A DNA stretch of 64,000 nt from an uncultured Gammaproteobacteria bacterium (GTDB lineage: Bacteria > Patescibacteriota > Microgenomatia > Levybacterales > UBA12049): assembly GCA_964610465.1 (NCBI GenBank), contig CAZSWA010000006.1:4332-68331 (forward strand). The letters run 5' to 3'. How positions within the stretch are numbered: the stretch's first letter is position 1; every line of letters begins with the position of its first letter. Positions 27,440 to 64,000 of the stretch are shown here, piece by piece. The notes under the pieces are model-generated. The model had not been told where the DNA came from. It saw only the letters and a list, made by a program, of their open reading frames with translations, and ran no database searches. Position numbers and translations under genes: made by a program.

Positions 27440-27805
27440 TTACTCAGCAGTACCAATATACTGTTTAATTTTATCTAATAAATCTTTCATATCAAATGGT
27501 TTTGCTAAAAAATCATCCGCGCCCGCTTCTTTGGCTGAAGTTTGTATATCACGGCTTGCTGAAACCATAATAATAGGAATATGCTTAGTAAAAGGATTCT
27601 TTTTTAAATACTTACAAATTTCTCGTCCATCTTCTCCTGACATCCAGATATCAAGTAGAAGTATATCAGGATACTCTTTCTCCATCTTATAAATTGTCTG
27701 TCCATCAAGGGTTGAATCCACTTCATATCCAAACTCTTCTAAAATAAGGGTTGTCGATTCTACAATAGCTGGATCATCATCAGCGATTAATATTTTTTTT
27801 GCCAT
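27440..27805 (-). CDS. Single-domain response regulator (CheY-like receiver)
   Basis: KILIADDD...LLDIWM...MVSA receiver motifs; 121 aa. Confidence 0.8.
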   Translation of the reverse strand: MAKKILIADDDPAIVESTTLILEEFGYEVDSTLDGQTIYKMEKEYPDILLLDIWMSGEDGREICKYLKKNPFTKHIPIIMVSASRDIQTSAKEAGADDFLAKPFDMKDLLDKIKQYIGTAE

Positions 27806-27871
27806 ATACTATCCTTTCATGTCAATTTACTAGTGAAATTGTAAAACAAATTTATGAAAACTCTGAAAGAG

Positions 27872-29494
27872 TTATTCATGTTTGATTTCTTCCTCAGCTT
27901 GTTGTGATAGGCTACCTTTCTTTTTCTTACCAGCTTTTTTTAATGGTAATGTGAAGCAGAAGGTTGAGCCTTTTCCTTCTATACTTTCTACCCATATTTT
28001 TCCACTCAAACGTTTAACAATTTCGCTTGAAATATATAATCCAAGACCAAGTCCAGGATACGTCTCTTTTCCTGGTCCACTTGCTCGAAAAAAACGCTCA
28101 AATACTTTATCTTGCTTATCTTTTGGTATGCCTACTCCAAAGTCTTGAACACAAAGTTTTATGCTTTCTTTTTCTACTGATGACCATATATGTATTTCTT
28201 TTGCATAGGGAGAATATTTTATTGCATTGGAGATGAGGTTATTAAGTACCTGACTAATACGTTCATGATCTGCATAAATAGTTTTGCCTGTTTTGCCTTT
28301 TTTTATCAGTACATGCTTATCTGTTGTTCGTTGCAATTCCTCAACTACCTCATCCACTAATTCATCAAATGAGAATTGCGCACTATTAAACTGCATTTTG
28401 CCTGATTCGATCTTGGTGATATCAAGCAAATCACCAATAAGGTTAGTTAATTTATCTACCTGTGCATCAAGCTTACCAATCAGTTCTGCTGCGTTTTGAT
28501 TCCCTTCTTTGGTGAATCGATGTTTTAACAACTGCGCGAATGATTTGATACTAGTTACTGGCGTTTTTAATTCATGACTTGCAATACCTAAAAACTCATC
28601 TTTTTGACGTTCCAAATGTTTTTCTTGGGTAATATCTCTTGCTATTTTAGAAGCTCCAATAACGTGCCCATCTTTATCTTTAATGGGTGAAACGGTAAGT
28701 GATATATCAATTCTCCTTCCATCCTTTGCCGTTCGAACTGTTTGAAAGTGATCTATACGCTTTCCTTGTCTAAGAGTGGTAAGGATTTCATCTTCTTGAT
28801 ATTGAAGTTCAAGCGGTATAATAGTTCGAATAGATTTACCAATTATCTCGTGTGCTTTATATCCAAAGATTTTTTCTGCACCTTTATTCCAAGTCATGAC
28901 AATACCGTCTAGATTTTTGCTAACAATTGCAACGTCAGATGATTCAACAATTGCTGCTAGTCTAAACTGTTCTTCCTGGGCTTTTAAAAAATATCCATGG
29001 AAGGTAAAAGCAACTTGAGAACCAATAGTATCAATAAATATGCTAAGTTTTTGTGAAAGCTCATAGATTTCATCTGCTGTTAATTTTTTTACCAGCCCTG
29101 TTTCTTCTAGTTTTTTCCATATTGCTTGTTTAAGATAGATCGATCCATTAACTAACTCTTCTATAGTTAGTCCCTTCTTGAGCGCTTCTTCTGCTATTTG
29201 CTTTCCAAACTTTCTTATTTCTTGCGAAGCCTTCTGTATATCTTTTGATTCTAGTGAGTTAGCAACCTTTTGAACAACTTTTATATGTTGTCCTTTAAAC
29301 TTTTTTAAATAGTCATTACGAAGACCTTTACTAGTTAAATACATTTTATGATAATGTGTTGCTTTATCTTCTATTTCCTCAGCATTATCAAGAAGAAATT
29401 GCTTAATCTTTAAAAACTTTGGCTGCAGGATTTTATCTTGAGACTTGCTTTTATCATTTAATTTTTGCATAACAAATATACGATAAAATACCAT
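27872..29494 (-). CDS. Sensor histidine kinase with PAS domain (cytoplasmic)
   Basis: PAS segment, HisKA H-box HELKTPVTSI, HATPase_c G-boxes (DFGVGI, GLGLGL); alternative start MQKLNDK at 29470. Confidence 0.8.
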   Translation of the reverse strand: MVFYRIFVMQKLNDKSKSQDKILQPKFLKIKQFLLDNAEEIEDKATHYHKMYLTSKGLRNDYLKKFKGQHIKVVQKVANSLESKDIQKASQEIRKFGKQIAEEALKKGLTIEELVNGSIYLKQAIWKKLEETGLVKKLTADEIYELSQKLSIFIDTIGSQVAFTFHGYFLKAQEEQFRLAAIVESSDVAIVSKNLDGIVMTWNKGAEKIFGYKAHEIIGKSIRTIIPLELQYQEDEILTTLRQGKRIDHFQTVRTAKDGRRIDISLTVSPIKDKDGHVIGASKIARDITQEKHLERQKDEFLGIASHELKTPVTSIKSFAQLLKHRFTKEGNQNAAELIGKLDAQVDKLTNLIGDLLDITKIESGKMQFNSAQFSFDELVDEVVEELQRTTDKHVLIKKGKTGKTIYADHERISQVLNNLISNAIKYSPYAKEIHIWSSVEKESIKLCVQDFGVGIPKDKQDKVFERFFRASGPGKETYPGLGLGLYISSEIVKRLSGKIWVESIEGKGSTFCFTLPLKKAGKKKKGSLSQQAEEEIKHE

Positions 29495-29727
29495 TGATTA
29501 TCGAAAACAAGTTTGATTATACGAAAAACAATGTGAGAATTGTGTAAGATGGGATACTATATTATGCCAGTTAATATTGTTGAACACATTTGAATTTCTT
29601 CGTTGTAAATAATATTGCTGAGTAAATTAAGGCGCTCTAATAGATCAAACACAGATTAAAAAAACGGAGATTGGCTGCGACATTAGAATCTATTTTATGA
29701 GTATTTAAATGTATTTCCTTGTAATTG

Positions 29728-39322: not shown

Positions 39323-40063
39323 ATGCAAATAAAAGTTATTACATGGAACATATGGCGTGGCAAATATCTTGATGGAGTTATTGATTTCTTAAAAAGTAGT
39401 AATGCTGATATTATCGGGCTTCAGGAAATAATAGAAGATGAAAGTCTAACAAGTCGGGAGAACTTAGCACAAATTATTGCCAAATCACTTGGATATAATT
39501 ATGTATATTGTAAGGCTTTTACTACAGATAGACATATGCCTATATATGATATAGGGAATGCAATACTTAGCAAGTACGAAATACAAAATACCATGTGTAT
39601 AGAATTAAGCGGATTGAGCGATTACAAAAGTGATTCTACAACCGAACCCCGTAATGCAATAAAAGCTGAGATTACTATTAATAATAGAACACTTACTATT
39701 CTTAATACACATCTTGCATACTCTCATGAACTTAAGCCGTTTGAGCTTCGAACAAAACAAGTAGAAAAATTAATTCCACCTATCAAGTCACAAAATACTA
39801 TTTTAATGGGAGATTTTAATAGTATGTTGGAAAATGAAGAAATGAAAAGAATACAAGAAGTTATTCCCAATGCAGATACGAGTACAGAAAAACAGGCAAC
39901 ATGGAGTGTCTACCCAACTGATTATAAAGGATTTATAGTGAAAGGACTTGAATATAGAATTGATAATATTTTTGTAAGTAATGACATTCGTGTAGTCAAT
40001 TTTGCGATAGAAAGTTCAAGAGCTTCTGATCATCTCCCAATAAGTGTCCTTGTTGAAATATAG
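39323..40063 (+). CDS. Endonuclease/exonuclease/phosphatase (EEP) family protein
   Basis: IKVITWNIWRG N-terminus and SDHLPISV C-terminus. Confidence 0.75.
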   Translation: MQIKVITWNIWRGKYLDGVIDFLKSSNADIIGLQEIIEDESLTSRENLAQIIAKSLGYNYVYCKAFTTDRHMPIYDIGNAILSKYEIQNTMCIELSGLSDYKSDSTTEPRNAIKAEITINNRTLTILNTHLAYSHELKPFELRTKQVEKLIPPIKSQNTILMGDFNSMLENEEMKRIQEVIPNADTSTEKQATWSVYPTDYKGFIVKGLEYRIDNIFVSNDIRVVNFAIESSRASDHLPISVLVEI

Positions 40064-40067
40064 CGAT

Positions 40068-40673
40068 ATGAATCTTAGAGTAGTAAAACCAACTGATACT
40101 ATCCTCCGTACAAAATGCAGTCCAGTTTCAAAAAAAGAATTACGTACAAAAAACATGCAAAATCTTATAGATGAATTGCTTAATTTCGTATATGGCAGCA
40201 GTAATAAAGGAAAAGAAAGAATTACAAAAAAACCAATGACAGTTGGTTTATCTGTCAATCAAGTAGGTATTCCCAAAAGGATAGCAATTGTTGATTTGGC
40301 AATTGGTAAGAAAACCTACAATGATTTATATGTACTTATAAATCCTGAAATCTTGTGGCATTCAAAAACACTCATTGAAAAAAGTGAAGGATGTGTTAAC
40401 CTACCTAACGTCTGGGGATATGTAAAACGATATAAAAAAATAAAAATAAAAGCACTTGATAGATCTGGAAATGAATTAATCCTTATGCTTCAAGGATAGC
40501 CCGCAATACTACTGCAGCATGAGATAGGACATCTCAATGGAGAACTGTTTATAGACAAACTTGAAAATCCACAAAAAGCACATCTGGTAAAAACCGGAGA
40601 ATATAAAGCATATAAAAAAACTAAAAAAAGCTGGAACAAATACATTGATATCTCATCATTAATTAAAAAATAA
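40068..40673 (+). pseudogene. def: Peptide deformylase interrupted by a single in-frame TAG (40497-40499); motif III QHEIGHLNG lies downstream of the stop
   Basis: Motif I GLSVNQVG and motif II EGCVNLP are in ORF 40044..40499; same frame continues PAILLQHEIGHLNGELFIDKL... to TAA at 40671-40673. Confidence 0.7.
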
Positions 40674-40685
40674 TATCCTCAATGT

Positions 40686-40733
40686 TTCTTTCTTAATCCT
40701 TACCGTTTTTTGGTTATTCTCTTATTGATAAGT
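40686..40733 (+). repeat. ~46-nt direct repeat, copy 1 (upstream of KGG gene)
   Basis: tctttcttaatccttaccgttttttggttattctcttattgataa vs copy 2 at 41039; ~85% identical. Confidence 0.5.
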
Positions 40734-40780
40734 CTTAGGATGAGACTAAACTAGATTAGTTAAAAGGGGGTGATAATAAT

Positions 40781-40957
40781 ATGGCACAAAAAGGAAATGG
40801 CAGAGGATTTGCCTCAATGGATCCTGATAAACAACGACAAATTGCAAGTAAAGGCGGAAGAGCAGCTCATTCAAAAGGTACAGCCCATGAATGGACAAGC
40901 GATGAAGCACGTGAAGCAGGTCGTAAAGGTGGACGCGCAAGACAGAAAAGTAGATAA
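40781..40957 (+). CDS. KGG-repeat stress-induced protein (YciG/Con-10-like)
   Basis: MAQKGNGRGFASMDPDKQRQIASKGGRAAHSKG...GRKGGRARQKSR; AAAGGGGGTGA RBS; frame differs from ORF-track entry 40770..41030. Confidence 0.7.
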   Translation: MAQKGNGRGFASMDPDKQRQIASKGGRAAHSKGTAHEWTSDEAREAGRKGGRARQKSR

Positions 40958-40986
40958 AAGCAAGTCTTACGTAAAGCAACAGAAAA

Positions 40987-41016
40987 ATATCCCTGTCCTT
41001 CAGGGATATTTTTTTA
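40987..41016 (+). terminator. Rho-independent terminator
   Basis: 9-bp stem ATATCCCTG/CAGGGATAT, 5-nt loop, then TTTTTTT. Confidence 0.7.
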
Positions 41017-41038
41017 GAATTTGCAACTGATAGTACAG

Positions 41039-41086
41039 TTCTTTCTCAATCCTTACGTTATTTTGGTTATTCTCTCATTCATAAAC
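41039..41086 (+). repeat. ~46-nt direct repeat, copy 2
   Basis: ttctttctcaatccttacgttattttggttattctctcattcataaa. Confidence 0.5.
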
Positions 41087-41240
41087 AGTAAGCTAACTCT
41101 AGTATCATGAATATCTCAAATATGTTTGTTTATAAAAAAGAAACTCCTGGCAAAGGCATCGAAAGTCTACGATATTGCGATATCACTTGCTATTTAAATT
41201 TTAGAAAAAATAGAGGGAAGCGAGGTGAGACACGCTTATT

Positions 41241-41492
41241 ATGAACATTTTGTCATGGATTTTTTTTGGTTTAATAGTTGGAATAATAGCAAATGCAATT
41301 GATCCACAACCAGCGCGCGGAGGATTACTCGGTGCAATATTGCTGGGAGTTGTTGGAGCTCTTGTTGGAGGTTTTCTTGCCAATTTAATATTTGGTATTA
41401 CGGTAACAGGATTTAATTTAACATCCTTCTTGATAGCAGTTGCTGGTTCACTGATATTACTCTTTATAGGCAGAGCTATAAGAAGAGTATAA
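41241..41492 (+). CDS. GlsB/YeaQ/YmgE-family stress-response membrane protein
   Basis: 83 aa, Gly-rich TM helices GGLLGAILLGVVGALVGGFLANLIFG. Confidence 0.8.
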   Translation: MNILSWIFFGLIVGIIANAIDPQPARGGLLGAILLGVVGALVGGFLANLIFGITVTGFNLTSFLIAVAGSLILLFIGRAIRRV

Positions 41493-41503
41493 AAATAGAA
41501 CAG

Positions 41504-41549
41504 GGTATGGATGGATGCAAGCAAGCATGAGCACATCTATCCATACCCA
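41504..41549 (+). terminator. Long GC-rich stem-loop after glsB-like gene (terminator-like, weak U-tract)
   Basis: GGGTATGGATGGATG ... CATCTATCCATACCC, 15-bp stem. Confidence 0.4.
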
Positions 41550-41606
41550 TTTGGGGTAAAGGAATTTTAGTTTAAAAAATAATCAAGGAAAGCGAGGTGA
41601 TAAAAG

Positions 41607-41903
41607 ATGGAACATAATTATCGAGATAGGAATGGAGTAAATCCAGTAACAGCAGGTTTTGTAGGTATTGTGCTAGGAGCTGCGGGTGCAGTAGCAGTTC
41701 TTTTATCAGATGAAGAAATAAGAAAAAAAGCAACAAAACGATATCATCAATTAAAAAAGAATCTGAGCGATTGGAGTGATGAAAATTTAAAAGAACTCAA
41801 AGATGAGAAGAAAGCGATTAAAGAGAGAGTACGAGAGAAAGCAAGTAATGTAATGGAATCTGAAATAGTTGATGAGGGAAAAATTGAGGAGAAGAAAGAA
41901 TAA
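41607..41903 (+). CDS. YtxH-like small membrane-anchored coiled-coil protein (putative stress protein)
   Basis: N-terminal GFVGIVLGAAGAVAVLL then charged helical tail; leader shares motif with glsB-like gene. Confidence 0.35.
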   Translation: MEHNYRDRNGVNPVTAGFVGIVLGAAGAVAVLLSDEEIRKKATKRYHQLKKNLSDWSDENLKELKDEKKAIKERVREKASNVMESEIVDEGKIEEKKE

Positions 41904-41916
41904 ATTATTCAATCAC

Positions 41917-42603
41917 CTATAAGGAATAATCAAGTGTTGAGTGTTCTTGAGAAATAAATAGAATTTCTTCTTCCAGTTTTTTAATATTTCTTAACAATAA
42001 GAATTTCCCTTCCCGTGCCACAAAACCGGCTTTTTCTAACTTTTTCATCTCAAGTGATGTAGTTTCTCTTGTAATTCCAACAAGGGTTGCAATATCTTTA
42101 TGTGTAAGCGGGACTTTGAAAATAATACTATCTCCCTGTTCTTCACCAAAACGTTTTGCACAGATAAGTAATGTTGCTGCGACTTTTATGTAGGCATTAC
42201 TGCATACGAGATATTCCATTCTTGAAAGAAATCCATCAAACCGTACTAGAAGACGCGATGTGAGATCTTCATATACATCAGGATTATCTTTTATAAAATG
42301 CAGAAATTGTTCTTGTGGGGCGCTCCAGAGTTCAAGCGGAGTTATCGCTTCAAGATAATATGGATTGGTAATATTATTCATTCCATACGTAAGCGGAAAA
42401 AAATCATCAGGTTTAAGTATTGTTAAAGTAAGTTCTTCTCCTTGTTCTGAAAGTCTATATACTCGTACATATCCGCTTTTGATAAAAAATACGCTTGAGG
42501 AATTATCGTTAGCATGGAGAATCATACTGCGTTTTTTATATTTGAGGAGTTTATATTTTTGAAAAAATAAATTAATCTTAGATACCGAATTAAGTATCAA
42601 CAT
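41917..42603 (-). CDS. Crp/Fnr-family transcriptional regulator
   Basis: cNMP-binding beta-roll region plus C-terminal HTH (HKDIATLVGITRETTSLEMKKLE). Confidence 0.8.
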   Translation of the reverse strand: MLILNSVSKINLFFQKYKLLKYKKRSMILHANDNSSSVFFIKSGYVRVYRLSEQGEELTLTILKPDDFFPLTYGMNNITNPYYLEAITPLELWSAPQEQFLHFIKDNPDVYEDLTSRLLVRFDGFLSRMEYLVCSNAYIKVAATLLICAKRFGEEQGDSIIFKVPLTHKDIATLVGITRETTSLEMKKLEKAGFVAREGKFLLLRNIKKLEEEILFISQEHSTLDYSL

Positions 42604-42742
42604 ACTGTTTTCTCTAATCTTGTGTAATGCATCTTACAGACACGACATCATAATAAAATAAAAAAGCTGTAAGAAAAGTATAAGAAGGTATAAATATACA
42701 TATTGCATCCATAGGATTTTCTGATAAGATAATGAACACAAT

Positions 42743-43915
42743 ATGGATAATGTCATAGAAAAGATATATAACTGTACTTTAAAATTATTAGCATCTACAG
42801 ATACAAAAGAGTTATACAAATCAATTGTTGTGGAAGGAAAAGAACTGGTAAATGCAGAATTCGGATCAATTTATCTAGACAATAACGATACCTTTTCTTT
42901 AGCATATAGTTCATTACCATTTCTCAATAAATTTAAATTAAGACGTAATGGATTTGTACAAAAAACCTTTCAGACAAGGAAAATTGTTATTCTTCATGAG
43001 AAAGACATACTAAAAATACGGCCTGCCTTAGGTCGAAAAGCGATGCAGTCAGTAATTATGATCCCATTGTCCTATGTAAATAAATCAATTGGTGTGCTTT
43101 GTTTTAATTCTTCAAAGCAGGAACATTTTTCGGATAATGAGTTACATATATTAAAACTTTTTGGATCAATTGCCAGTCTCGCAATTACCAAAGCACACCA
43201 TCTTGATTCAGCAAAAAACGCCATAGAAATTAGAGATAGATTTATATCTCTTGCCTCTCATGAGCTAAGAACTCCTTTAACTTCTATTAACGGATATATT
43301 CAGCTTCTCTATGCGAAACTTGCAAATAAAGGTACTTCTGAATCCCGTTGGGTAGAAGAATTGTATAAAGAAAATATAAGACTGACAACCTTAATTAAAG
43401 AACTTTTAGATGTGAATAGAATAAAACAAGGTCAATTACACTTTGTTCTTAAAGAAGTAAATATTTTAGAGCTACTAGAAAAAGCAATAAAATTGATACA
43501 CGCCAATTATTCTGAAAGAGATGTCCAATTTAAAAACTTAGTAAAACAGAAAAATACTGTATTGGTCATTGGAGACTATGAGAAATTGCTTGATATTTTG
43601 AATGCGCTTCTCAATAACGCAGTAAAATTTTCTCCTCCTCATTCAAAAATAGTAGTAGCTATTGAATTAAAGGATCGTACAATTTTTATCCATATTAAAG
43701 ATAAAGGAAAAGGTATTCCCAAAAAAGATATTCCCAAAATTTTTGAAGGATTCTATAAACATAATATAGAACAATATAAAGAAGGAATGGGAGTCGGGTT
43801 GTTACTTGCAAAACATATTATTGAGTATCATAAAGGGAAATTGAGCATTATTTCAGAAGAAAATAAAGGGACAACAATTACAATAGAACTTCCGTCAATT
43901 CAATATACTCATTAA
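42743..43915 (+). CDS. GAF-domain sensor histidine kinase (soluble)
   Basis: GAF-like N-half, H-box HELRTPLTSINGYIQLL, HATPase_c (KDKGKGIP, GMGVGL). Confidence 0.8.
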   Translation: MDNVIEKIYNCTLKLLASTDTKELYKSIVVEGKELVNAEFGSIYLDNNDTFSLAYSSLPFLNKFKLRRNGFVQKTFQTRKIVILHEKDILKIRPALGRKAMQSVIMIPLSYVNKSIGVLCFNSSKQEHFSDNELHILKLFGSIASLAITKAHHLDSAKNAIEIRDRFISLASHELRTPLTSINGYIQLLYAKLANKGTSESRWVEELYKENIRLTTLIKELLDVNRIKQGQLHFVLKEVNILELLEKAIKLIHANYSERDVQFKNLVKQKNTVLVIGDYEKLLDILNALLNNAVKFSPPHSKIVVAIELKDRTIFIHIKDKGKGIPKKDIPKIFEGFYKHNIEQYKEGMGVGLLLAKHIIEYHKGKLSIISEENKGTTITIELPSIQYTH

Positions 43916-43946: not shown

Positions 43947-45563
43947 ATGATAAATAGCTTCATGAAAAGGAATTCAGGATTTACACTTATAGAACTTCTT
44001 ATAGTAATAGCAGTGTTATCTGTTATTTTGATATCTGTAATATTTTTTATGAATCCATTAGAAAATTTTGCAAAATCCCGTGATGCAGGAAGAATCAGTG
44101 AAGTAAATGAACTTGGAAGCGCTATCACAAGATTTATGACAAAAGGAAATTCTTCATATCCTATGTCTACACCAAACTGGCAGTCAACTATTCTTAAGGC
44201 AAATGCTGAGATAGCTGCTCCAATACAATCTACAGGAAGCAAATCATGTAACGCTGGCAACAATGAAGGTAATATTTGTTATATTTCAACAGGAGTTGAT
44301 GCAATTATCTGGACAAACGCAGAATCAAAAGCTGCTGCAATTATTGCTCAATGTCAACCAAATCAAGTTCCAGTGATTGCCTGGATAGCGTCTCAAGGCA
44401 GAACCGGATATACTTGTCTTGCAAATACTACTGCTGTTCCTTCTTCTGATGCCGCCAATAATATGTTTGATACTATTGTGTTATCTACTCCTAGTATAGT
44501 CATCGTATCAAATCAGCCGACTCCAACTCCTACTTCTACTCCATCAGGAGGAAGTATTATCATAATTTCATCATCAACAACTCCAAGCCCTACTCCTGTC
44601 AACAGAAATTATTACCCGGCTAATATCGATTTTCCTGCTTCAGGTGCTTATGGTCAGTATAGTCAAGCTGCTTTAAACAATCTAGGAATAAATGGGATAG
44701 ATATAAATATGAATTGGGTTGATGTAGAACCACAACAGGGAGTATATAACTTTGGACCAATTGACCAGGAAATAACAACATGGGTACAAGCGGGAAAGGA
44801 ATTTACTCTTGTCGTTCGTTATATTGCAGATACGGGTACCTGTACAGGTACACAATACATGCCACAATGGGAGATACAGCGCATTCCTCATTTTTGCGAT
44901 ACCTTAAAAGGAACTATAATTCCAAATTACTTTGATCAAACCTTTATCACCGATTTGGAAACATTTGTAAAAGCAATTGGCAGTCATTTTACCCAGAGTC
45001 CTTATAAAGCTAATTTAGCATATATTCGTGTTGGGTTAGGAGTAGCAGGAGAAGGATTCCCTATTTTTTCTTTAACAAGTAATCCTGATTGGTCACAACT
45101 TATAGCATATGGATATACTCCAGCTAGCTGGAGAGATTGGCAAAGAGCACGTATGGCCACTTTCAAAGCAGCATTTCCCTGGACAAAAGTTATTTATCCT
45201 ATTAATGTACAAGGTACAACTGATCCTGCCAACGGATTACCTTTACAGGTTTCTCAAGCTTATTGGGCCGCGGCAAATGGATTAGGAATTGGGTCTCAAA
45301 CTTTGTCACCAGGTTTTACCTATGCACAAATTAATACTATTGCTGCTTATATCAATAAAAATTATCCTGGGACTTACATCCAGTTTCAAACTAAAACAGG
45401 CGTAAATAGTAGTTCTACAGTTCAAGGAGATATACAAACAGCTCAAAACTATGGCGCAAGAAGTATTGAGTGGTATGAGAATGTTGTTGGGAACAATTCT
45501 TATACGCCTTTATTTCAGCAGTGGCAACAGTATGTGAACACAACATATGGGACAATGCCTTAA
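43947..45563 (+). CDS. Type IV pilin-like protein with Thr/Pro-rich linker and C-terminal glycoside-hydrolase-like TIM-barrel domain
   Basis: Prepilin signal KRNSG|FTLIELLIVIAVLSVIL (Gly-1, Phe+1, Glu+5); linker QPTPTPTSTPSGG...TTPSPTPV; C-domain motif NWVDVEPQQGVYNFGPIDQEI resembles GH5/GH42 family. Confidence 0.6.
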   Translation: MINSFMKRNSGFTLIELLIVIAVLSVILISVIFFMNPLENFAKSRDAGRISEVNELGSAITRFMTKGNSSYPMSTPNWQSTILKANAEIAAPIQSTGSKSCNAGNNEGNICYISTGVDAIIWTNAESKAAAIIAQCQPNQVPVIAWIASQGRTGYTCLANTTAVPSSDAANNMFDTIVLSTPSIVIVSNQPTPTPTSTPSGGSIIIISSSTTPSPTPVNRNYYPANIDFPASGAYGQYSQAALNNLGINGIDINMNWVDVEPQQGVYNFGPIDQEITTWVQAGKEFTLVVRYIADTGTCTGTQYMPQWEIQRIPHFCDTLKGTIIPNYFDQTFITDLETFVKAIGSHFTQSPYKANLAYIRVGLGVAGEGFPIFSLTSNPDWSQLIAYGYTPASWRDWQRARMATFKAAFPWTKVIYPINVQGTTDPANGLPLQVSQAYWAAANGLGIGSQTLSPGFTYAQINTIAAYINKNYPGTYIQFQTKTGVNSSSTVQGDIQTAQNYGARSIEWYENVVGNNSYTPLFQQWQQYVNTTYGTMP

Positions 45564-45573: not shown

Positions 45574-46245
45574 TTATTCTTTGATGACGTAGCCGAATCC
45601 ACGTACAGAGTGAAGGAGTTTTTTGGGATAGCCATTGTCAATTTTTTTTCTGAGGTAGCCCATGTAGACATCAACTACTCTGGTTTCTACTTCTGAGGAG
45701 TACAGCCAGATTCTACTTAAGATCATTTCTCGTGTTAATATTCTTCCTTTGTTACTCATTAAGTACTGAAGAAGTTTAAACTCCTGGGGAGTAAGTTGAA
45801 TAAGTTTTCCAGAGCGTTTAACCTCTAAGGTTTTATTATCTAACTCTAAATCATCAACTTTGAGCGTTGCATTGGTATCTCCTTGTTTTCTTAGCCTTGC
45901 TTTAATACGAGCTAAGAATTCATCAGCAACAAAAGGTTTGGTCATGTAATCATCAGCACCAAGGTTTAAGCCTTGAACAATATCATTGATGGAGTCTTTG
46001 GCAGTAAGAATGATGATAGGCAGGTCTTTATGTTTTTTTCTGATTTCCTGACACACTGCTTCACCACTCATGTTAGGAAGACCTAAATCAAGAACCACCA
46101 CATCCGGGTCTCCTTTTTTAAAGTATTCTAAAGCTTGAATACCATCTCCTACTGTATGCACAGCATACCCATTATCCAGCAACAACTCCTTCAAATACTT
46201 CTGCAATCCCTTATCATCTTCCACTACAAGTATTGTATGTACCAT
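45574..46245 (-). CDS. OmpR/PhoB-family response regulator (receiver + winged helix), copy A
   Basis: LVVEDD..., LDLGLP, TAKD receiver motifs; C-terminal wHTH VDVYMGYLRKK; ORF extends to 46284, start placed at MVHTILVVEDD. Confidence 0.85.
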   Translation of the reverse strand: MVHTILVVEDDKGLQKYLKELLLDNGYAVHTVGDGIQALEYFKKGDPDVVVLDLGLPNMSGEAVCQEIRKKHKDLPIIILTAKDSINDIVQGLNLGADDYMTKPFVADEFLARIKARLRKQGDTNATLKVDDLELDNKTLEVKRSGKLIQLTPQEFKLLQYLMSNKGRILTREMILSRIWLYSSEVETRVVDVYMGYLRKKIDNGYPKKLLHSVRGFGYVIKE

Positions 46246-46247
46246 AA
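45577..46247. repeat. Direct repeat A (~670 bp), near-identical to 50617..51287
   Basis: Sequence lines 45601-46227 match 50641-51267 base for base on inspection; boundaries approximate. Confidence 0.8.
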
Positions 46248-46402
46248 GTGCCCAAATTATAACAATATTTGTCCAGATTCTCAAAGGGGAAAATAAGAAA
46301 TGCGAAATAACCCTATATAAAATGTAAGAGTTTTGCTGCCGCGCTTGACTTCTCTTACCAATAGTTGTAGATTCTCTTACAATATTCTAATATTTAAATC
46401 AT

Positions 46403-47716
46403 ATGGATACTTACTCTTTACGAAACATGATTTATCAATCTATCCTAGAGCTTGCAACAGAAGAAGGAATAAATGCCTCCGGGAAAGAAGAAATATATGG
46501 ATGTATCTTTGGAAGAGATAGTTTTGTCACTATCCTTAAGATAATGAAATCACTTTCCAACACCAATTCAGCACCTTTTATTGAGACGCAATTACTTCTT
46601 GATATCTGCAGACGTTCACTTTTAACTCTTGTTCAGCTTCAAGGAAAAGAAACCAATATTGAAAGTGGAGAAGAACCTGGTAAATTTATCCATGAATACA
46701 GGAAAGAAAAATACGAAAGATTGGTCAATCGACCTGTCAAACCATGGTATCTCTATCCGGATAAAATTTTGCGTAATTATGACTCCATAGATTCTACACC
46801 TCTTGGACTTATTGCACTTTATAGATATTGGAATATAACTAAAGATGATACCTTTTTGCTACAAGTGTTACCAGCAGTTGAGTCTGGACTTAACTGGATT
46901 ATTACTTACGGAGATAAAGATAAAGATGGACTTATTGAGTATGAACTTCATAAAGAGAGAAAACATGGAGGATTGGTAGTACAATCCTGGACTGACTCTC
47001 ATGAATCAATTACTCAAGCTGATGGAAGATTTCCTGATTATCCAATCGCACCGGTTGAAGCACAAGGATATGCGTGGCTTGCTCTTAAACTCTGGTCTGA
47101 TTTTTATGCTGATACTTCCAGAAATTATGCCAAAACTGAAAATTTCGCTCACAAACTGGCAACTCAGGCAGAGCTCATGAAAAAACGATTTAATGAAATA
47201 TTTCTTTATGAGGATGAAGAACTGCTTTTCCCGGCTCAAGCACTTGACGGGAGCAAAAATCAATTACGCACAGTGACAGGGAATTCACTCCTTCTGCTTT
47301 GGGCGACATACTATAATAATGGTAAGTCCGAGTCAATTCTTGATGATACATTTATTCCTGATTTGGTGAAGCGTTCCTTTATGGATGATTTGTTTGACTC
47401 AGAAGCGGGTATCCGTACAATGAGTACAAAGGCTGCAACCTATATTTCAGGGCAAAATTCATACCATAATGGCAGTTTCTGGCCAAAGCTCAATGGTATG
47501 GTACATGAAGGACTTACAAACTGGAATTATTTGAAAGAAGCAGAGCATCTCAAAGAAGCAACCCTTAAACCTATTCAGTACTTTGGTACACCAATAGAAC
47601 TTTATGTGAAAGGAGAAAATGGAAACTATCTGCCATTTCGTAACTCTGCAGGCCGTGAAGGATGCAGGCAACAAGCCTGGTCAGCAGCTGTCGCCCTTGA
47701 TCTTCTAACCCTATAA
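46403..47716 (+). CDS. Amylo-alpha-1,6-glucosidase / glycogen-debranching-enzyme C-domain-like six-hairpin glycosidase
   Basis: GCIFGRDS motif near N-terminus and QAWSAA near C-terminus, as in GDE_C family. Confidence 0.55.
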   Translation: MDTYSLRNMIYQSILELATEEGINASGKEEIYGCIFGRDSFVTILKIMKSLSNTNSAPFIETQLLLDICRRSLLTLVQLQGKETNIESGEEPGKFIHEYRKEKYERLVNRPVKPWYLYPDKILRNYDSIDSTPLGLIALYRYWNITKDDTFLLQVLPAVESGLNWIITYGDKDKDGLIEYELHKERKHGGLVVQSWTDSHESITQADGRFPDYPIAPVEAQGYAWLALKLWSDFYADTSRNYAKTENFAHKLATQAELMKKRFNEIFLYEDEELLFPAQALDGSKNQLRTVTGNSLLLLWATYYNNGKSESILDDTFIPDLVKRSFMDDLFDSEAGIRTMSTKAATYISGQNSYHNGSFWPKLNGMVHEGLTNWNYLKEAEHLKEATLKPIQYFGTPIELYVKGENGNYLPFRNSAGREGCRQQAWSAAVALDLLTL

Positions 47717-47845
47717 CATTATAATTAACCTCAACTTAGTAGGAAACTTTGTCAGGTTTTAGTCATAGTTGTCAAGCATAATGGTCAAGGTGTTTCTACA
47801 ATTGCGATAATAATAGTATTAGTAAGGTAAATTACATCTTGTAGT

Positions 47846-50605
47846 ATGATAATAGAAGGTGATAGAAGACCTGATAATGGTTCTATCCATAACCAAAAAA
47901 TTCCCTTTGACACTCCTAAAATAGGAGATCCTCATGGAGAAGTTTCTGGTAGGATAGGATTTACAGAGTTGCAGCAACTCTATCAAGCTCCAAAAGAATC
48001 CCGTGAAGTAAAATCTCCAACAGGAAAAGAGTGGATGTTTGTAGTGGAAGGATATACTCCGGAAGATTCAATAGAAGAAGAACGAAGAGAAAGACTCCTG
48101 GCATTAGGAAACGGAAATTTTACGATTGAACAAAAAGGTATAGATGGTTCAATACATATGGTATATCAAAAAGGTTTTTACATGCGTAACTCGGAGTCAG
48201 AATCTTCTGATTCAAGTCCTGTTGCTGCTGCGTTTAATATCGCAGGTTTTGGACTCCATATCAATAACGGTGAGCATTTAAATCCACGTACTTCTGATTT
48301 ATCTGACATAAAGAGAGAATATGACTTACGTCATGCAACTCTTACCACTTCGTATACATGGCATGAGCATGATAAAGGTCAGGAAAGAAAAACTGATGTA
48401 GAAATTGAATTATTTGTGAGTCAAACAGACCCAAATATCATTGCAAGAAAAATAACACTTAAGCCAAATTATAATGGTTCGCTGACAGTGAAAATGGGTA
48501 TTGAAGGGAACGCAGATAATGGTGGTATAGATTTTGTTGAAGAAGCACAGACAGAAGAAGTAGATGCTAAGATAACCCATTATAGTGCAAAAGCAAGATC
48601 ACATACTGAAGTATCAAAACCCAAAGATATTGCAATCGCACATAAAATAGATACCAATAGTGATGATATACAAAGAAAAATACTGCATGAAAATAGAAGC
48701 ATACACCAGGATATTACTGTAGCTGAAGCAAAAGCAGGTCAACCGTTGGTATTTGAAGAAATTATCAGTCTGCATACGAGTGTTGACCAAAAGTATGGAG
48801 ATAAATTTGGATGTACACCAGGAGAAGCTGCAATAGCTGAAATTAAAGAGGTAAAAAATTATGATGAGCTTAAAAAAGCTCATATAAAAGCCTGGGATAC
48901 AATTTGGGAAGATTCTGAACTTGAAGTAGAAGGTGACCCTGAAGTTGTATTTGCGCATCATTTTAACCGTTCACATTCCTTACAAGATGAACGAGAAGGT
49001 TATGATGAAGGCAGCACTGGAGCAAAGTTTAATCCTAAGCCGAGAAAAGGGTATGGTAGGCGCTCATTTCATGATGATAGATATCGAGCCCATAAAAAAC
49101 CTGAACTTTTAGAAACACACTTAAACTTCCGAATGAAATTAATGGAAGCAGCAAGAAAAAAAGCCAAGAGAACCCTATATGATTTTCGAATGAGAACAGC
49201 AACAACAGATGAAGAACGGGCAAAAGCAGAAACGCTTTATCACTCAAACATTGATGAAGGAATCCATTTGCCCTGGGAAGCATACTCTCCACCAGAGGAC
49301 GGAGAAGACCCAGAAGGCGGTCCAAAATGGATAATAAATGCTAAAGGAGAAAAAGTTGAAGTAGAAGCACTAGAAGAAGAAATTCATATTAATGCTGCAT
49401 TTGTACGGCAGATAGTGGAGCTCTATCATATGACAGGAGATAAAGAAAAACTCAGGAAATTTGCTCCATTTATTTTGGAATCAGCAAGATTCTATTCACT
49501 TCGTGGTTCTGAAGATGGAGTATATCGTGGAGTTATGGGTACTAATGAATACCATCCTCATGTGGATAATAATGGTTTAACCCAGACATATAGTAAATAT
49601 ACTATTGATAAAGCGCTTTGGTTATTGCAAGAAGGAATTGTCACAGATGAACAAATAAAAGAATTACATCTTACACAAGAAGAACTAGATAAATGGGAAG
49701 ATATGAGACAAAAAATTCATATTCCTCTTAATACAAAGACAATGATACTTAGTGCATTTGATGGGTATGAAGAAAAACAACATATTGATTTAAACTCGCC
49801 AGAGTATAAAGGTGTTGTTGGAATGGATAGTTTTCTTCTAAAAAAAGGGATACATGTGAGAGACACTGATGTTATTAAACAACCTGATGCAACACTTGTA
49901 TTACGGGAACTTTATTATGATTTTCTCAATCTTCTTTCACCTGAACAACTTAAGGAATTACGATTGAATAATCCTGGAAAATCAGATAATGAGATAATGG
50001 CTCTTATTTTTAAGACCAATCAGAAGTACTATAGAGAACATACGTGTCATGGTTCATCTCTCTCTCCAAATGAAAATGTGATAGCAGATCTTTTGGCTGG
50101 TGAAGATCCAAATACTGTATTTGAAACATACAAAGAGACTATTGCTATGGATGTATCACACAAGAATACTCATAACACACAAGACGGGTTACATAGTGGA
50201 AATATAAATGCAGCAGAAAAAGCTTTAGATGAAGGCTATGGAGGTGTTACAATAAATAAAGACGGTATTCATATGATACCAAGACTTCCTGATGCTAGTA
50301 AAATCTCAGTTATTCGAAGTACTGAATATTATAATGGAAATAAAGTAGGGATTGAAGTAAATCAAAATACAAATAAAATTACTGCAACTGCACTGGAATT
50401 TGCGCAAGGTGAAGAAGGAAGTGTGCCTGTATACTTAAATGGCAATTTTATATCCCTTTCAAGGGAGCATCGAACTGAATCAGTTGCACTTAAAGATACA
50501 GCTCAAGAACAACAGGAAAAAACAATTTTCTCTTCTACGCCGAAATTACCACAATTTTCACTTCCTCAACAACCTATATTTAATGGACAAACCTACGCTC
50601 AATAA
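47846..50605 (+). CDS. Glycoside hydrolase family 65-like protein (disaccharide phosphorylase family) with large charged insertion
   Basis: GH65 N-domain signature EWMFVVEGYTPEDSIEEERRERLLALGNGNF; 919 aa with Lys/Arg/Glu-rich insert around residues 380-470. Confidence 0.55.
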   Translation: MIIEGDRRPDNGSIHNQKIPFDTPKIGDPHGEVSGRIGFTELQQLYQAPKESREVKSPTGKEWMFVVEGYTPEDSIEEERRERLLALGNGNFTIEQKGIDGSIHMVYQKGFYMRNSESESSDSSPVAAAFNIAGFGLHINNGEHLNPRTSDLSDIKREYDLRHATLTTSYTWHEHDKGQERKTDVEIELFVSQTDPNIIARKITLKPNYNGSLTVKMGIEGNADNGGIDFVEEAQTEEVDAKITHYSAKARSHTEVSKPKDIAIAHKIDTNSDDIQRKILHENRSIHQDITVAEAKAGQPLVFEEIISLHTSVDQKYGDKFGCTPGEAAIAEIKEVKNYDELKKAHIKAWDTIWEDSELEVEGDPEVVFAHHFNRSHSLQDEREGYDEGSTGAKFNPKPRKGYGRRSFHDDRYRAHKKPELLETHLNFRMKLMEAARKKAKRTLYDFRMRTATTDEERAKAETLYHSNIDEGIHLPWEAYSPPEDGEDPEGGPKWIINAKGEKVEVEALEEEIHINAAFVRQIVELYHMTGDKEKLRKFAPFILESARFYSLRGSEDGVYRGVMGTNEYHPHVDNNGLTQTYSKYTIDKALWLLQEGIVTDEQIKELHLTQEELDKWEDMRQKIHIPLNTKTMILSAFDGYEEKQHIDLNSPEYKGVVGMDSFLLKKGIHVRDTDVIKQPDATLVLRELYYDFLNLLSPEQLKELRLNNPGKSDNEIMALIFKTNQKYYREHTCHGSSLSPNENVIADLLAGEDPNTVFETYKETIAMDVSHKNTHNTQDGLHSGNINAAEKALDEGYGGVTINKDGIHMIPRLPDASKISVIRSTEYYNGNKVGIEVNQNTNKITATALEFAQGEEGSVPVYLNGNFISLSREHRTESVALKDTAQEQQEKTIFSSTPKLPQFSLPQQPIFNGQTYAQ

Positions 50606-51285
50606 TTACTTTTACTCTCTTTGATGACGTAGCCGAATCCACGTACAGAGTGAAGGAGTTTTTTGGGATAGCCATTGTCAATTTTTTTTCTGAGGTAGCC
50701 CATGTAGACATCAACTACTCTGGTTTCTACTTCTGAGGAGTACAGCCAGATTCTACTTAAGATCATTTCTCGTGTTAATATTCTTCCTTTGTTACTCATT
50801 AAGTACTGAAGAAGTTTAAACTCCTGGGGAGTAAGTTGAATAAGTTTTCCAGAGCGTTTAACCTCTAAGGTTTTATTATCTAACTCTAAATCATCAACTT
50901 TGAGCGTTGCATTGGTATCTCCTTGTTTTCTTAGCCTTGCTTTAATACGAGCTAAGAATTCATCAGCAACAAAAGGTTTGGTCATGTAATCATCAGCACC
51001 AAGGTTTAAGCCTTGAACAATATCATTGATGGAGTCTTTGGCAGTAAGAATGATGATAGGCAGGTCTTTATGTTTTTTTCTGATTTCCTGACACACTGCT
51101 TCACCACTCATGTTAGGAAGACCTAAATCAAGAACCACCACATCCGGGTCTCCTTTTTTAAAGTATTCTAAAGCTTGAATACCATCTCCTACTGTATGCA
51201 CAGCATACCCATTATCCAGCAACAACTCCTTCAAATACTTCTGCAATCCCTTATCATCTTCCACTACCAATGTAGTATTTACCAT
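50599..51285 (-). CDS. OmpR/PhoB-family response regulator, copy B
   Basis: Protein identical to copy A from residue 6 onward except for the C-terminal extension SKSNY. Confidence 0.85.
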   Translation of the reverse strand: MVNTTLVVEDDKGLQKYLKELLLDNGYAVHTVGDGIQALEYFKKGDPDVVVLDLGLPNMSGEAVCQEIRKKHKDLPIIILTAKDSINDIVQGLNLGADDYMTKPFVADEFLARIKARLRKQGDTNATLKVDDLELDNKTLEVKRSGKLIQLTPQEFKLLQYLMSNKGRILTREMILSRIWLYSSEVETRVVDVYMGYLRKKIDNGYPKKLLHSVRGFGYVIKESKSNY

Positions 51286-51287
51286 TA
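50617..51287. repeat. Direct repeat B (~670 bp)
   Basis: See repeat A. Confidence 0.8.
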
Positions 51288-51486
51288 CTCGAAATTATAA
51301 CAAATAAATAGAGACTTACAAGAGAAATGATACATTTCTTGCAATCTTATTACAGAAAGTAAGAGATTTATTACCAAATTATCATACTAGCTCTTCTGTT
51401 TTACAGAAAGCACTGATAATAGAAAGAAAATGTACTATGTTTTTACATATTTCTTACGCTCTAATAGTTGCATTTTTACAAAAAAC

Positions 51487-51514
51487 TTGACAAAATAAAA
51501 TATTTTGGTATAAT
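51487..51514 (+). promoter_or_regulatory. Sigma-70-type promoter upstream of the GH18 gene
   Basis: TTGACA -35, 16-nt spacer, TGgTATAAT extended -10; about 80 nt upstream of ATG 51593. Confidence 0.45.
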
Positions 51515-51592
51515 TCGCCCCAAGTCCTTCGGTTTTATTCTTAACATATTATCTTTAACAATCAAAATCAGTTATTCCTAAATAAATAACTT

Positions 51593-52951
51593 ATGGATTT
51601 GAAACTGCCCGGTTATAGACAAAAACAATTTATACGATTCTTACAACAAAACGGTACTTCCACAAGTGCATATAAGAAAAAAAGCCTACTAGTCTCTCTT
51701 GAATACATTTGGGCATTTCTCATTTGTGCATTTACGCTTCTCACACTTCTTCTTTTTTATGTCCCAATGACCCATACAAACAAAAGTAAATTTGTTTCAC
51801 CAATGGTTCTCGACTGGAAAAAGACTAATCTTAAACCACTTACCCAAAGTAAAAAAGGATATGAAGTATTTGGATTTGCACCCTATTGGACAATTAATAA
51901 ACTTGATAATGTTGATTTTAGTACATTGACCACTTTTTCTTACTTTGGCGTACCAGTTGATGCATATGGTAATTTGCAAAGAGATGATCAAGGGTATCTT
52001 ACATTTATAAGTGATAAGGCAAGTGATATCTTCAAAAAAGCTCATGCAACAAATACTAGAGTTGTCTTGACTGTTACCCAAATGGATAATTATTCTATTG
52101 CGTCTCTTCTTGATAATCCTGATGCACAAGCTAACGCGATTTCCCAAATAGTAACTGAAGTAAAAAATCGCGGTATCGATGGAGTAAACGTGGATTTTGA
52201 ATATGTAGGCGATCCAGGAGACGGATATCGTACAGAGTTTACCAATTTTGTGAGTAACTTAACTGATAAGCTGCATCAGCAAGTACCAAACTCAAAAGTA
52301 ACAGTATCTGTATATGCTCTTTCAGTACGCGATCCAAAACTCTACAATATTGCAAGTCTTGCAAAACATACGGACGGAATTTTTATGATGGCTTATGATT
52401 TTGCAGGAGTTGGTGCTGACAATGCGATGCCTACTGCCCCATTATATGGATACAATCAAGGAAAATATCCATATGATGTATCAACTGCGGTAAATGATTT
52501 TCTTAAAGTAATGCCATCTGAAAAACTCATTCTTGGAGTCCCGTATTATGGATATAACTATCTGGTTTATCAACCTCAAGTAAATAGCCAAACGCTTCCC
52601 TATTGGACATGGAAAGGTCAGCCAATGACACAGACATATTCTATCGCACAAGATGATATCCAGCCAACCATGGATGGTGTTGACGCGTATACCACTGGTT
52701 GGGATGCTGTAGGGGATGTAGGATACAAAGCCTATCATGATACGTATAACGATACCTGGAGAATGATATTTGTAGAAGATACCAAATCACTGGGGATGAA
52801 ATATGACTTCGCAAAAAATAAAAATCTTGCTGGAATAGGAATTTGGGCTCTTGGATTTGATGATGGTAAAAAGGAACTATGGGCATTATTACGACAAAAA
52901 TTCGGAGAGAAATTAGCTGATAGCAGAGGAGCAAACTATGGAACAAATTGA
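51593..52951 (+). CDS. Glycoside hydrolase family 18 (chitinase-like) protein, membrane-anchored
   Basis: N-terminal TM; catalytic motif DGVNVDFEY (DxxDxDxE). Confidence 0.7.
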   Translation: MDLKLPGYRQKQFIRFLQQNGTSTSAYKKKSLLVSLEYIWAFLICAFTLLTLLLFYVPMTHTNKSKFVSPMVLDWKKTNLKPLTQSKKGYEVFGFAPYWTINKLDNVDFSTLTTFSYFGVPVDAYGNLQRDDQGYLTFISDKASDIFKKAHATNTRVVLTVTQMDNYSIASLLDNPDAQANAISQIVTEVKNRGIDGVNVDFEYVGDPGDGYRTEFTNFVSNLTDKLHQQVPNSKVTVSVYALSVRDPKLYNIASLAKHTDGIFMMAYDFAGVGADNAMPTAPLYGYNQGKYPYDVSTAVNDFLKVMPSEKLILGVPYYGYNYLVYQPQVNSQTLPYWTWKGQPMTQTYSIAQDDIQPTMDGVDAYTTGWDAVGDVGYKAYHDTYNDTWRMIFVEDTKSLGMKYDFAKNKNLAGIGIWALGFDDGKKELWALLRQKFGEKLADSRGANYGTN

Positions 52952-59761: not shown

Positions 59762-59762
59762 G

Positions 59763-60161
59763 ATGAAAAAAATTTTATTAGCAGAAGATGATTTTTTTAT
59801 TAGAGATATCTATAAAAGAATTTTTGTAAATGGTGGCTATGAGGTTGATGTTGCTGAAGATGGCGAAATTACATTGAATAAGCTGAAAGCCCAGCCTTAT
59901 GATCTAGTATTGCTTGATATCATGATGCCAAAAGTCACGGGGATTGATGTACTAAAAACATGTAAAGCATTTGATTCTCCAATAAAGAATATCCCTATTT
60001 TCCTCATTACTAACTTGGGTCAAGAAAGTATTATAAAAGAGGCATTTAGACTAGGCGCAAATGGATATTTCTTAAAGGCTCAACTGACTCCACAACAAAT
60101 TCTTGCAGAAATAAATGCTTTTTTTGAGAATAAAGAAAATCCTAATGCACCTATTACATAG
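59763..60161 (+). CDS. Single-domain response regulator (CheY-like)
   Basis: KILLAEDD, LLDIMMP, receiver fold; starts 2 nt after the kinase stop. Confidence 0.8.
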   Translation: MKKILLAEDDFFIRDIYKRIFVNGGYEVDVAEDGEITLNKLKAQPYDLVLLDIMMPKVTGIDVLKTCKAFDSPIKNIPIFLITNLGQESIIKEAFRLGANGYFLKAQLTPQQILAEINAFFENKENPNAPIT

Positions 60162-63666: not shown

Positions 63667-63832
63667 TTAGATAATTATATCAAAGAATTTTTATGCAATT
63701 CTTACAGTATTTTTATTGTATTTACAATAATCAATTGTACGATGGTTTAGATATTACTCAGTATTTACTATGAAGTTATTTTTATTGAGAGAATTTTACT
63801 ATTTTAGATTAGTAGTCAATCAAGGAAAGGGG

Positions 63833-63882
63833 GCTGGACTTTGCGAAGTCCAGCATCCCTTCCAATCTCTTGATTGGAAGGG
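63833..63882 (+). promoter_or_regulatory. Two tandem GC-rich stem-loops in the 5' leader; the second overlaps the RBS of the downstream gene
   Basis: SL1 GCTGGACTT-tgcg-AAGTCCAGC (9 bp); SL2 CCCTTCCAAT-ctcttg-ATTGGAAGGG (10 bp), whose 3' arm runs into GGGAGGTGA RBS. Confidence 0.35.
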
Positions 63883-63893
63883 AGGTGACATGG

Positions 63894-64000
63894 ATGATTA
63901 GAACAGCAGTAGTTGCAGGAATTGTATTTGCTCTGTCATTATTTGCAGCCGGAGCAGTTGCATTTGGACAAACGTCAACATCAACACCATCTCCAAGTCC
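63894..64000 (+). CDS. Secreted/exported protein, N-terminal fragment (continues beyond window)
   Basis: MIRTAVVAGIVFALSLFAAGAVAFGQTSTSTPSPS = signal-peptide-like; track lists 63896..64000. Confidence 0.4.
   Translation, partial: MIRTAVVAGIVFALSLFAAGAVAFGQTSTSTPSPS

Follow-up and report, generated by a model that had tools for sequence, protein, structure and literature searches.

Small proteins of the KGG-repeat, GlsB/YeaQ/YmgE and YtxH families are members of general stress regulons, as in the sigma-B regulon of Bacillus subtilis (gsiB, ytxH), the RpoS regulon of Escherichia coli (yciG, ymgE/yeaQ) and the gls24-glsB system of Enterococcus. Winged-helix response regulators of the OmpR/PhoB family bind tandem heptamers with an 11-bp period at pho-box-type promoters that lack a -35 hexamer. 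To our knowledge, almost nothing is known about transcriptional regulation in bacteria of the Candidate Phyla Radiation (CPR), since these organisms are uncultured. Here, we analyzed a cluster of three small genes (KGG, glsB and ytxH-like) and the 46-nucleotide (nt) direct repeat that accompanies it in a 64,000-nt stretch of contig CAZSWA010000006.1 from a CPR lineage. The whole stretch is called the window below and coordinates are window positions unless given for a relative. We think it probable that the two repeats represent one conserved, activator-dependent promoter in two paralogous copies and that this promoter is switched on by the neighbouring two-component system.

As in the stress regulons of Firmicutes and Enterobacteria, the KGG-repeat, GlsB/YeaQ/YmgE and YtxH families appear together here as co-regulated stress proteins. 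In contrast to those regulons, no sigma-B-type promoter and no Rsb or sigma factor genes were found near the cluster, and a two-component system acting at a direct-repeat operator appears to be in control. A further difference is that the genes are clustered and syntenic across a CPR lineage. The locus thus offers a strongly conserved cis-regulatory motif, a candidate kinase/regulator pair and a core target set for this lineage. The regulon motif is new and comes from an understudied lineage, while the type of mechanism is already familiar.

The direct-repeat element and its distribution

The first-pass annotation had described a direct repeat of about 46 nt bracketing the KGG gene and its terminator, and this description holds: the copies lie at 40686-40731 and 41039-41084, are 87% identical and stand 353 nt apart. 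Each half of the repeat is found at those two places only in the window (in a shuffle test of the half-patterns, 8 of 100 and 1 of 100 shuffles equalled or exceeded the observed counts). The repeat is the core of an element of about 56 nt with the form TTCTTTC-N4-TCCTTAC-N15-CTCTyA-N11-TAnnnT. Upstream of KGG, the predicted promoter/operator element spans 40686-40741 (+), with TTCTTTC at 40686-40692, TCCTTAC at 40697-40703, CTCT at 40719-40722 and a -10-like TAGGAT at 40736-40741; its position weight matrix (PWM) score is 71.7. The corresponding element of glsB-ytxH spans 41039-41094 (+), with the two repeats at 41039-41045 and 41050-41056, CTCT at 41072-41075 and a -10-like TAAGCT at 41089-41094 (PWM score 64.2).

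Relatives were found via GlsB homologues, whose contigs were fetched, and GTDB representative genomes were scanned in addition. The records of these relatives are labelled Candidatus Levy(i)bacteriota, with some filed as Saccharimonadales or under a mislabelled "Gammaproteobacteria"; individual relatives are referred to by handles beginning with L. The window, whose own proteins occur on a single NCBI contig, thus most probably stems from a Levybacteria-like member of the Patescibacteria (CPR). A gapless alignment of 14 sites from 8 genomes yielded the consensus a.TTCTTTCt.AaTCCTTAC-N15-CTCTyA-N11-TAnnnT (about 50 bits), and the aligned sites reached PWM scores of 46-72 compared with a maximum of 5.6 in 20 window shuffles. 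Conservation is restricted to the motif blocks, and the positions between blocks vary. Across 18 aligned sites, TTCTTTC-N4-TCCTTAC is nearly invariant, forming 7-nt direct repeats with an 11-bp period that are followed by weaker repeats in the same phase (TTTTGGT, CTCTTAT).

All relatives examined have the ungapped element before KGG, and most have it before glsB too; both copies are present in seven relatives (L001, L002, L006, L007, L010, L012 and L106). Together with two more variants in the window, described below, this supports the earlier proposal of a co-regulated gene set with a recurring cis element. A motif that recurs nowhere and repeats that are missing from relatives had been named as what would speak against that proposal; the element does recur in related genomes. 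The gene order recurs as well and reads KGG, GlsB, (YtxH-like), Crp/Fnr (-), GAF kinase, OmpR-type regulator (-) and MGH1-like glycosidase. KGG-GlsB and the sensor kinase were present in every relative with enough sequence, and the YtxH-like, Crp/Fnr, OmpR-type regulator and glycosidase genes in most. In L012, a REC-only response-regulator gene lies on the opposite strand between KGG and glsB (9488-9838, -), so that the KGG and glsB units are separable, each keeping its own promoter element.

To look for further sites, a metagenome scan was carried out in which the 18 most conserved bases were fixed and the resulting loci were then scored at the unconstrained positions. The 82 loci obtained separated cleanly into about 14 true sites and about 68 chance matches within coding sequence. 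At 8 loci the true site stands before KGG (in one case a KGG-like gene), and the others precede glsB, a gene for a REC-only regulator with Lon behind it, and genes for small unknown proteins. With a relaxed two-heptamer pattern, 31 matches were obtained in 247 kb of related loci, compared with 0.08 expected. Exact copies of the repeat core were sought in GTDB representative genomes and none was obtained; neither the source genome nor its nearest kin is therefore one of the representatives. A scan of viral contigs returned 10 matches, all of them chance matches in coding sequence.

Two of the three gene identities put forward by the first-pass annotation find clear support in Pfam, while the YtxH-like protein gives a match below the cut-off. 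The KGG-repeat stress protein gene (40781-40957, +) encodes 58 amino acids and matches PF10685 with 59 bits against a cut-off of 20.4 (E = 5e-16). The gene for the GlsB/YeaQ/YmgE (Transgly_assoc) membrane protein (41241-41492, +; 83 amino acids) matches PF04226 with a score of 45.5 against a cut-off of 25.3. The third gene (41607-41903, +; 98 amino acids) encodes a YtxH-like small membrane-anchored protein whose match to PF12732 (30.3 bits) is below the gathering cut-off of 37.5, while 4 of 7 orthologues match at E<=0.01. KGG orthologues are 74-80% identical to the window protein. For GlsB, 640 homologues were found, the best of them 87% identical and many at 70-87%. A homologue search with the YtxH-like protein returned only the query itself, and exact-sequence look-ups of the window Crp/Fnr and YtxH-like proteins matched no record.

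A predicted activator-dependent promoter and its competitors

The position of the element points towards a promoter. Its start lies about 12-20 nt past the preceding gene or terminator, and about 20-45 nt separate its end from the Shine-Dalgarno (SD) sequence of KGG; the glsB copy follows the end of the KGG terminator at a distance of about 20 nt. Because this leaves no room for another promoter between the preceding gene or terminator and the SD sequence, the element itself is likely the promoter. In relatives, the distance from the element to the ATG is about 75-110 nt. In nearly all sites, whether or not they contain CTCT, the -10-like TAnnnT lies exactly 32 nt past the second heptamer, and no TTGACA-like hexamer was found 17 nt upstream of TAnnnT at the element sites. 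Canonical TTGACA-N17-TATAAT promoters are present elsewhere in these genomes, which sets the element apart from them. Two repeats that recur after 11 bp, a -10-like hexamer at a constant 32 nt, and the lack of a -35 hexamer, of a dyad and of RNA structure fit an activator-dependent promoter.

This architecture resembles the pho-box-type promoters of E. coli PhoB and Mycobacterium tuberculosis PhoP. In both cases, two 7-bp direct repeats are spaced by 4 bp, which gives a period of 11 bp, and weaker repeats in the same phase continue toward the -10; the latter, a predicted one here, stands at a constant distance and is not paired with a -35 hexamer. Genes for a regulator of the cognate type and a kinase lie beside the targets, as they do there. 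The heptamers themselves (TTCTTTC/TCCTTAC) are unlike CTGTCAT or TCACAGC, and binding is predicted here; moreover, the strong repeats are placed further upstream (about -62 to -45) than in a classical pho box, and the targets are stress proteins rather than phosphate genes.

The best candidate for the regulator is likely the OmpR/PhoB-family response regulator encoded at 45574-46284 (-; Response_reg and Trans_reg_C domains), here called RR1, as judged from its family and location. Its closest solved structure is that of M. tuberculosis PhoP (E = 1.8e-50), and it is also near PrrA, MtrA and RegX3. RR1 orthologues are 81-88% identical and stand beside the kinase in relatives, whereas identity is only 40-49% for the kinase and 53-72% for Crp/Fnr. 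The GAF-HisKA-HATPase histidine kinase gene (42743-43915, +) is the most consistently linked gene of the cluster, and a kinase-regulator pair lies beside the cluster in L007, L008, L009, L010, L012, L106 and L145. Between the two genes, the window carries a gene for a 538-residue pilin-like protein with a prepilin-type N-terminal methylation motif (43947-45563, +). This gene was probably inserted, since kinase and regulator are adjacent in relatives. A second copy of RR1, termed RR2 (50599-51285, -), encodes a protein 98-99% identical to it. The two genes contain 300 nt of DNA that is 100% identical, with the copies 5,040 nt apart, and they flank the MGH1-like glycosidase and GH65 phosphorylase genes. 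As relatives carry a single copy of the OmpR-type regulator gene, this arrangement represents either a recent duplication or an assembly artefact.

In the mechanism we propose, the GAF kinase would phosphorylate the OmpR/PhoB-family regulator, which would then bind head-to-tail on the two 7-bp repeats, located at about -62 to -45 if transcription starts about 7 nt past the -10. The weaker in-phase repeats would extend the regulator sites to about -23. Bound regulator would recruit housekeeping RNA polymerase to a promoter with a -10 and without a -35 hexamer. The expected products would be a monocistronic KGG mRNA closed by its terminator, a glsB-ytxH mRNA with an intercistronic stem-loop, a crp-like mRNA that would form a second regulatory tier, and the mRNA of a small secreted protein. 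Strong SD sequences complementary to 8-13 nt of the assumed 16S 3' tail would then support strong SD-dependent translation of these stress mRNAs.

Several points weigh against this model. The -10 assignment and the promoter coordinates are predictions from sequence, and the link between regulator and element is drawn from adjacency and motif architecture. One relative, L002, carries the element without an OmpR-type regulator within 5 kb, and the window itself encodes two more kinase/regulator pairs (27440-29494 and 57482-60161). A simple two-repeat operator does not explain the strongly conserved CTCTyA block (about -29 to -24), which could be a sigma contact. Finally, the survey of the regulon and of sigma factors in the source genome covered 64 kb.

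The CTCTyA block leads directly to the strongest competitor, in which an alternative (stress) sigma factor uses the element as its promoter, with TCCTTAC as -35 and CTCTyA as -10, 15 nt apart, and no response regulator is involved. Alternative sigma factors had also been suggested in the first-pass annotation. In its favour, TCCTTAC and CTCT are both strongly conserved and always 15 nt apart, and in Bacillus and E. coli the KGG, GlsB and YtxH families depend on sigma-B or RpoS. However, CTCT is missing from the sites of the Crp/Fnr, glycosyltransferase, glycosidase and secreted-protein genes, yet these sites keep both heptamers and TAnnnT at +32, and TTCTTTC, 11 bp upstream, is conserved as well as the supposed -35. 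The element contains no AAC-type motif of extracytoplasmic function sigma factors and the cluster has no sigma-B consensus; the two matches of the pattern GTTTWW-N12-15-GGGWAW in the window lie elsewhere, and there is none in the upstream regions read in relatives. Further, no sigma or anti-sigma gene was found among the scanned window open reading frames. Taken together, we regard an alternative sigma factor as rather unlikely. We give still less credence to binding of the element, and control of the cluster, by the adjacent Crp/Fnr-family regulator, the other candidate named previously. Its gene (cNMP_binding and HTH_Crp_2 domains; 41917-42603, -) faces ytxH in convergent orientation in the window as well as in L001, L006, L007, L009, L010 and L106. 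Crp/Fnr proteins bind dyad-symmetric sites, whereas the element consists of direct repeats without an inverted repeat of the TGTGA-N6-TCACA or TTGAT-N4-ATCAA type, and the sole palindrome (41171-41184) lies in a window-specific leader and is not conserved. In addition, L002, L008, L012, L142 and L145 have the element without an adjacent Crp/Fnr gene. Since the promoter of the Crp/Fnr gene itself carries the element and the element has no dyad, Crp/Fnr looks like a target rather than the regulator, and its gene is likely a member of the regulon.

Insertion or duplication of the KGG unit via the repeats, which would make them MITE-like (miniature inverted-repeat transposable element) copies or recombination scars, had been proposed on the grounds that two copies 87% identical and 353 nt apart bracket KGG and its terminator. 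Indeed, copies within a genome are somewhat more alike at unconstrained positions than orthologous copies (0.52 compared with 0.45 on average; 0.59-0.69 in the window, L012 and L106), and, like MITEs or repeats of the repetitive extragenic palindromic (REP) type, the sequence is short (about 46 nt), intergenic and present more than once. Against this, the copies occupy orthologous promoter positions, with orientation kept, in all relatives with this gene order, and conserved motif blocks alternate with variable spacers, while neither terminal inverted repeats nor a dyad were found in or flanking the copies and they show no fold. The suggested check for MITE-like copies elsewhere turned up no dispersed ones: copies are located at promoters only, and the GTDB and viral searches gave the null and chance results described above. 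A mobile or recombinational origin is thus very improbable. The excess of within-genome similarity that emerged from this concerted evolution test is modest and not seen in all genomes; there may be occasional gene conversion between promoter copies, and this may be why the window copies look like an 87% repeat. Equally hard to credit is a transcribed RNA element, i.e. a structured 5' leader, riboswitch or small RNA, to which one might ascribe conserved non-coding sequence upstream of small genes. No Rfam family matches the repeat (the window scan at gathering thresholds found only a tRNA elsewhere, and matches at permissive thresholds were chance terminator matches), single-sequence folds of both copies on both strands gave z = -0.2 to +0.8, RNAalifold predicted 0 pairs in 18 sequences, and the glsB copy starts about 20 nt past the KGG terminator. 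We therefore retain the activator-dependent promoter as the preferred explanation.

Transcript units, leaders and ribosome-binding sites

Two terminator hairpins had been assigned to the cluster, and one of these assignments stands. KGG is followed by an intrinsic terminator (40983-41020, +) with a perfect 13-bp stem (40983-41013) and a T-run, and an equivalent terminator follows KGG in 7 of 7 genomes folded. The hairpin between glsB and ytxH (41503-41548, +) is strong, with 15-bp arms and z = -4.5, but is followed by ATTTGGGG and has no U-tract, and thus does not qualify as a canonical terminator. A homologous hairpin is present in L106, and analogous hairpins of other sequence occur in L006, L008 and L145; altogether, the glsB/ytxH gap contains a hairpin without U-tract in 5 of 9 genomes and is otherwise a short spacer. 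No ytxH-specific promoter element was found in any genome examined. Because ytxH has no element of its own and the gap has no U-tract terminator, it is probably co-transcribed with glsB.

The motif shared by the regions upstream of glsB and ytxH had been read as a regulon signal. The similarity is real (41192-41228 and 41564-41600, 78% identical without gaps), and GGAAAGCGAGGTGA with up to two mismatches occurs in the window only at the glsB and ytxH sites. In gapped local alignments of the two leaders, the observed score was reached by 0 of 2000 shuffles, and by 49 of 2000 once the SD part was removed. Most of the signal thus stems from the ribosome-binding region, i.e. an extended SD sequence. 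The leader AATTTTAG...GGAAAGCGAGGTGA is absent from relatives, which have AAAGGAGGTGA instead, and it is the 46-nt repeat that carries the regulon signal.

Extended SD sequences precede all three genes. They were evaluated as duplexes with an assumed standard E. coli-type 16S 3' tail (...GATCACCTCCTTTCT), as the rRNA of the source lies outside the window. The KGG sequence GGGGGTGA (40766-40773, +) gave -18.6 kcal/mol, the glsB sequence GGGAAGCGAGGTGA (41215-41228, +), at the 3' end of the shared motif, -17.2 kcal/mol, and the ytxH-like sequence GGAAAGCGAGGTGA (41587-41600, +), at the 3' end of the shared motif at 41564-41600, -19.8 kcal/mol. The forms seen in the window are GGAAAGCGAGGTGA (twice) and AAAAGGGGGTGA, and relatives show AAAGG(A/G)GGTGA before all three genes. 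These SD sequences complement 8-13 nt of the assumed tail with -17 to -20 kcal/mol, compared with -9.4 kcal/mol for the best of 60 other window genes, most of which have no SD sequence at all. The earlier observation of a GGTGA-type ribosome-binding site on all three genes is therefore correct, and this is not the general ribosome-binding site of the window: GAGGTGA occurs four times in 64 kb, and strong SD sequences are found only at these stress genes and at a gene for a small secreted protein. In about 250 kb of related loci, strong SD sequences likewise precede almost only KGG, GlsB, YtxH-like and small secreted protein genes. The shared ribosome-binding site might thus serve as a second mark of the gene set, although any functional meaning is speculative.

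In 16 of 61 window genes, a TATAAT close to consensus ends 3-14 nt ahead of the start codon, compared with 9% at random positions, which suggests that many mRNAs in the window may be leaderless or have very short leaders. The window, in which most genes lack an SD sequence and a handful keep a very strong one, resembles SD-poor genomes with selective SD use (e.g. Bacteroidota). The SD-bearing genes here differ in that they make up the stress regulon rather than, for example, ribosomal-protein genes, again under the assumed 16S tail. Anti-SD loss is reported for some Parcubacteria, where the sequence was detected less often only in a subgroup (PMC9297842). With strong SD sequences in the window confined to stress genes and the secreted protein, the locus offers a handle on how translation initiation is partitioned. 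One could imagine, as a tentative and rather doubtful extension, a stress or dormancy regulon that is doubly marked, by a two-component direct-repeat promoter and by SD sequences of 8-13 nt, in a CPR lineage of mostly SD-less or leaderless mRNAs. KGG, GlsB, YtxH and the secreted Thr/Pro-rich peptide would then be shifted to SD-dependent translation that stays efficient when bulk leaderless translation is shut down.

In the window, glsB has a lineage-specific extra leader of about 100 nt (41096-41191, +) which is absent from relatives and contains the palindrome GATATTGCGATATC (41171-41184) and most of an upstream open reading frame. Comparison of this extra leader with neighbouring units revealed no significant similarity. 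The upstream open reading frame (41107-41244, 45 amino acids) has its ATG about 13 nt past the predicted -10, and its stop codon overlaps the glsB ATG (ATGA).

Variant elements and neighbouring genes

In two variant elements of the window, the two heptamers and a TAnnnT 32 nt further on are retained. The variant at 42631-42686 (-), in front of the Crp/Fnr gene, reads TTCTTAT-ACTT-TTCTTAC (42686-42669), followed after 32 nt by a -10-like TAAGAT (42636-42631). The class TTCTTAT-N4-TTCTTAC precedes the Crp/Fnr gene in the window, L006, L007, L008 and L106, and also a REC-only gene in L140. A fourth, weaker element at 63688-63743 (+) consists of TTTTTAT-GCAA-TTCTTAC (63688-63705) and, 32 nt further on, a -10-like TACGAT (63738-63743). 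It precedes the gene for the small secreted Thr/Pro/Ser-rich protein, whose SD sequence GGGAGGTGA lies at 63880-63888 (+) and whose reading frame starts with the ATG at 63894 and runs past the window end (63880-64000 covers SD sequence and start). The homologues of this gene in L008, L010 and L112 are likewise preceded by AAAGGAGGTGA. In L009 and L010, a full or variant site also stands before the glycosidase gene, and in L002 before a GT4 glycosyltransferase gene.

Some candidate sites were rejected. A weak PWM-like site upstream of the window glycosidase gene (46339-46400) was not counted, as a canonical TTGACT-N17-TAGATT promoter follows a single reversed half-site, TGTAAGA, at this place. 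Two-mismatch matches at 29533, 51336, 51440, 35820 and 46293 either have no -10 at +32 or are ambiguous. The promoter of the glycosidase gene (MGH1-like/GDE_C) shows a conserved arrangement of its own, TGTAAGA(A/G)-N13-15-GCTTGACT, at 46323-46351 (+) in the window, about 7733-7765 in L001 and about 8830-8860 in L002. Here, TGTAAGA corresponds to a single half-site of the stress element, in reversed orientation and placed before a canonical -35, whereas L009 and L010 have the full direct-repeat element instead. The match at 29533-29550 (-), ATCTTACACAATTCTCAC, lies just upstream of an operon encoding a PAS histidine kinase and a REC-only regulator (27440-29494, -), and in L112 and L140 the stress element stands before the orthologues of this REC-only gene.

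Beside the regulators, the stretch from 46403 to 52951 holds carbohydrate-active genes, namely the MGH1-like/GDE_C glycosidase, the GH65 phosphorylase and a GH18 gene, and this run may represent compatible-solute or glycan turnover tied to the stress locus. On the other side of the cluster, a peptide deformylase gene (40044-40673, +) contains one in-frame TAG at 40497-40499 (…LMLQG*PAILLQHEIGHL…). Each half of it matches Pfam Pep_deformylase, with the HExxH motif downstream of the TAG, and the interrupted gene could be a pseudogene or reflect a sequencing error or stop-codon readthrough.

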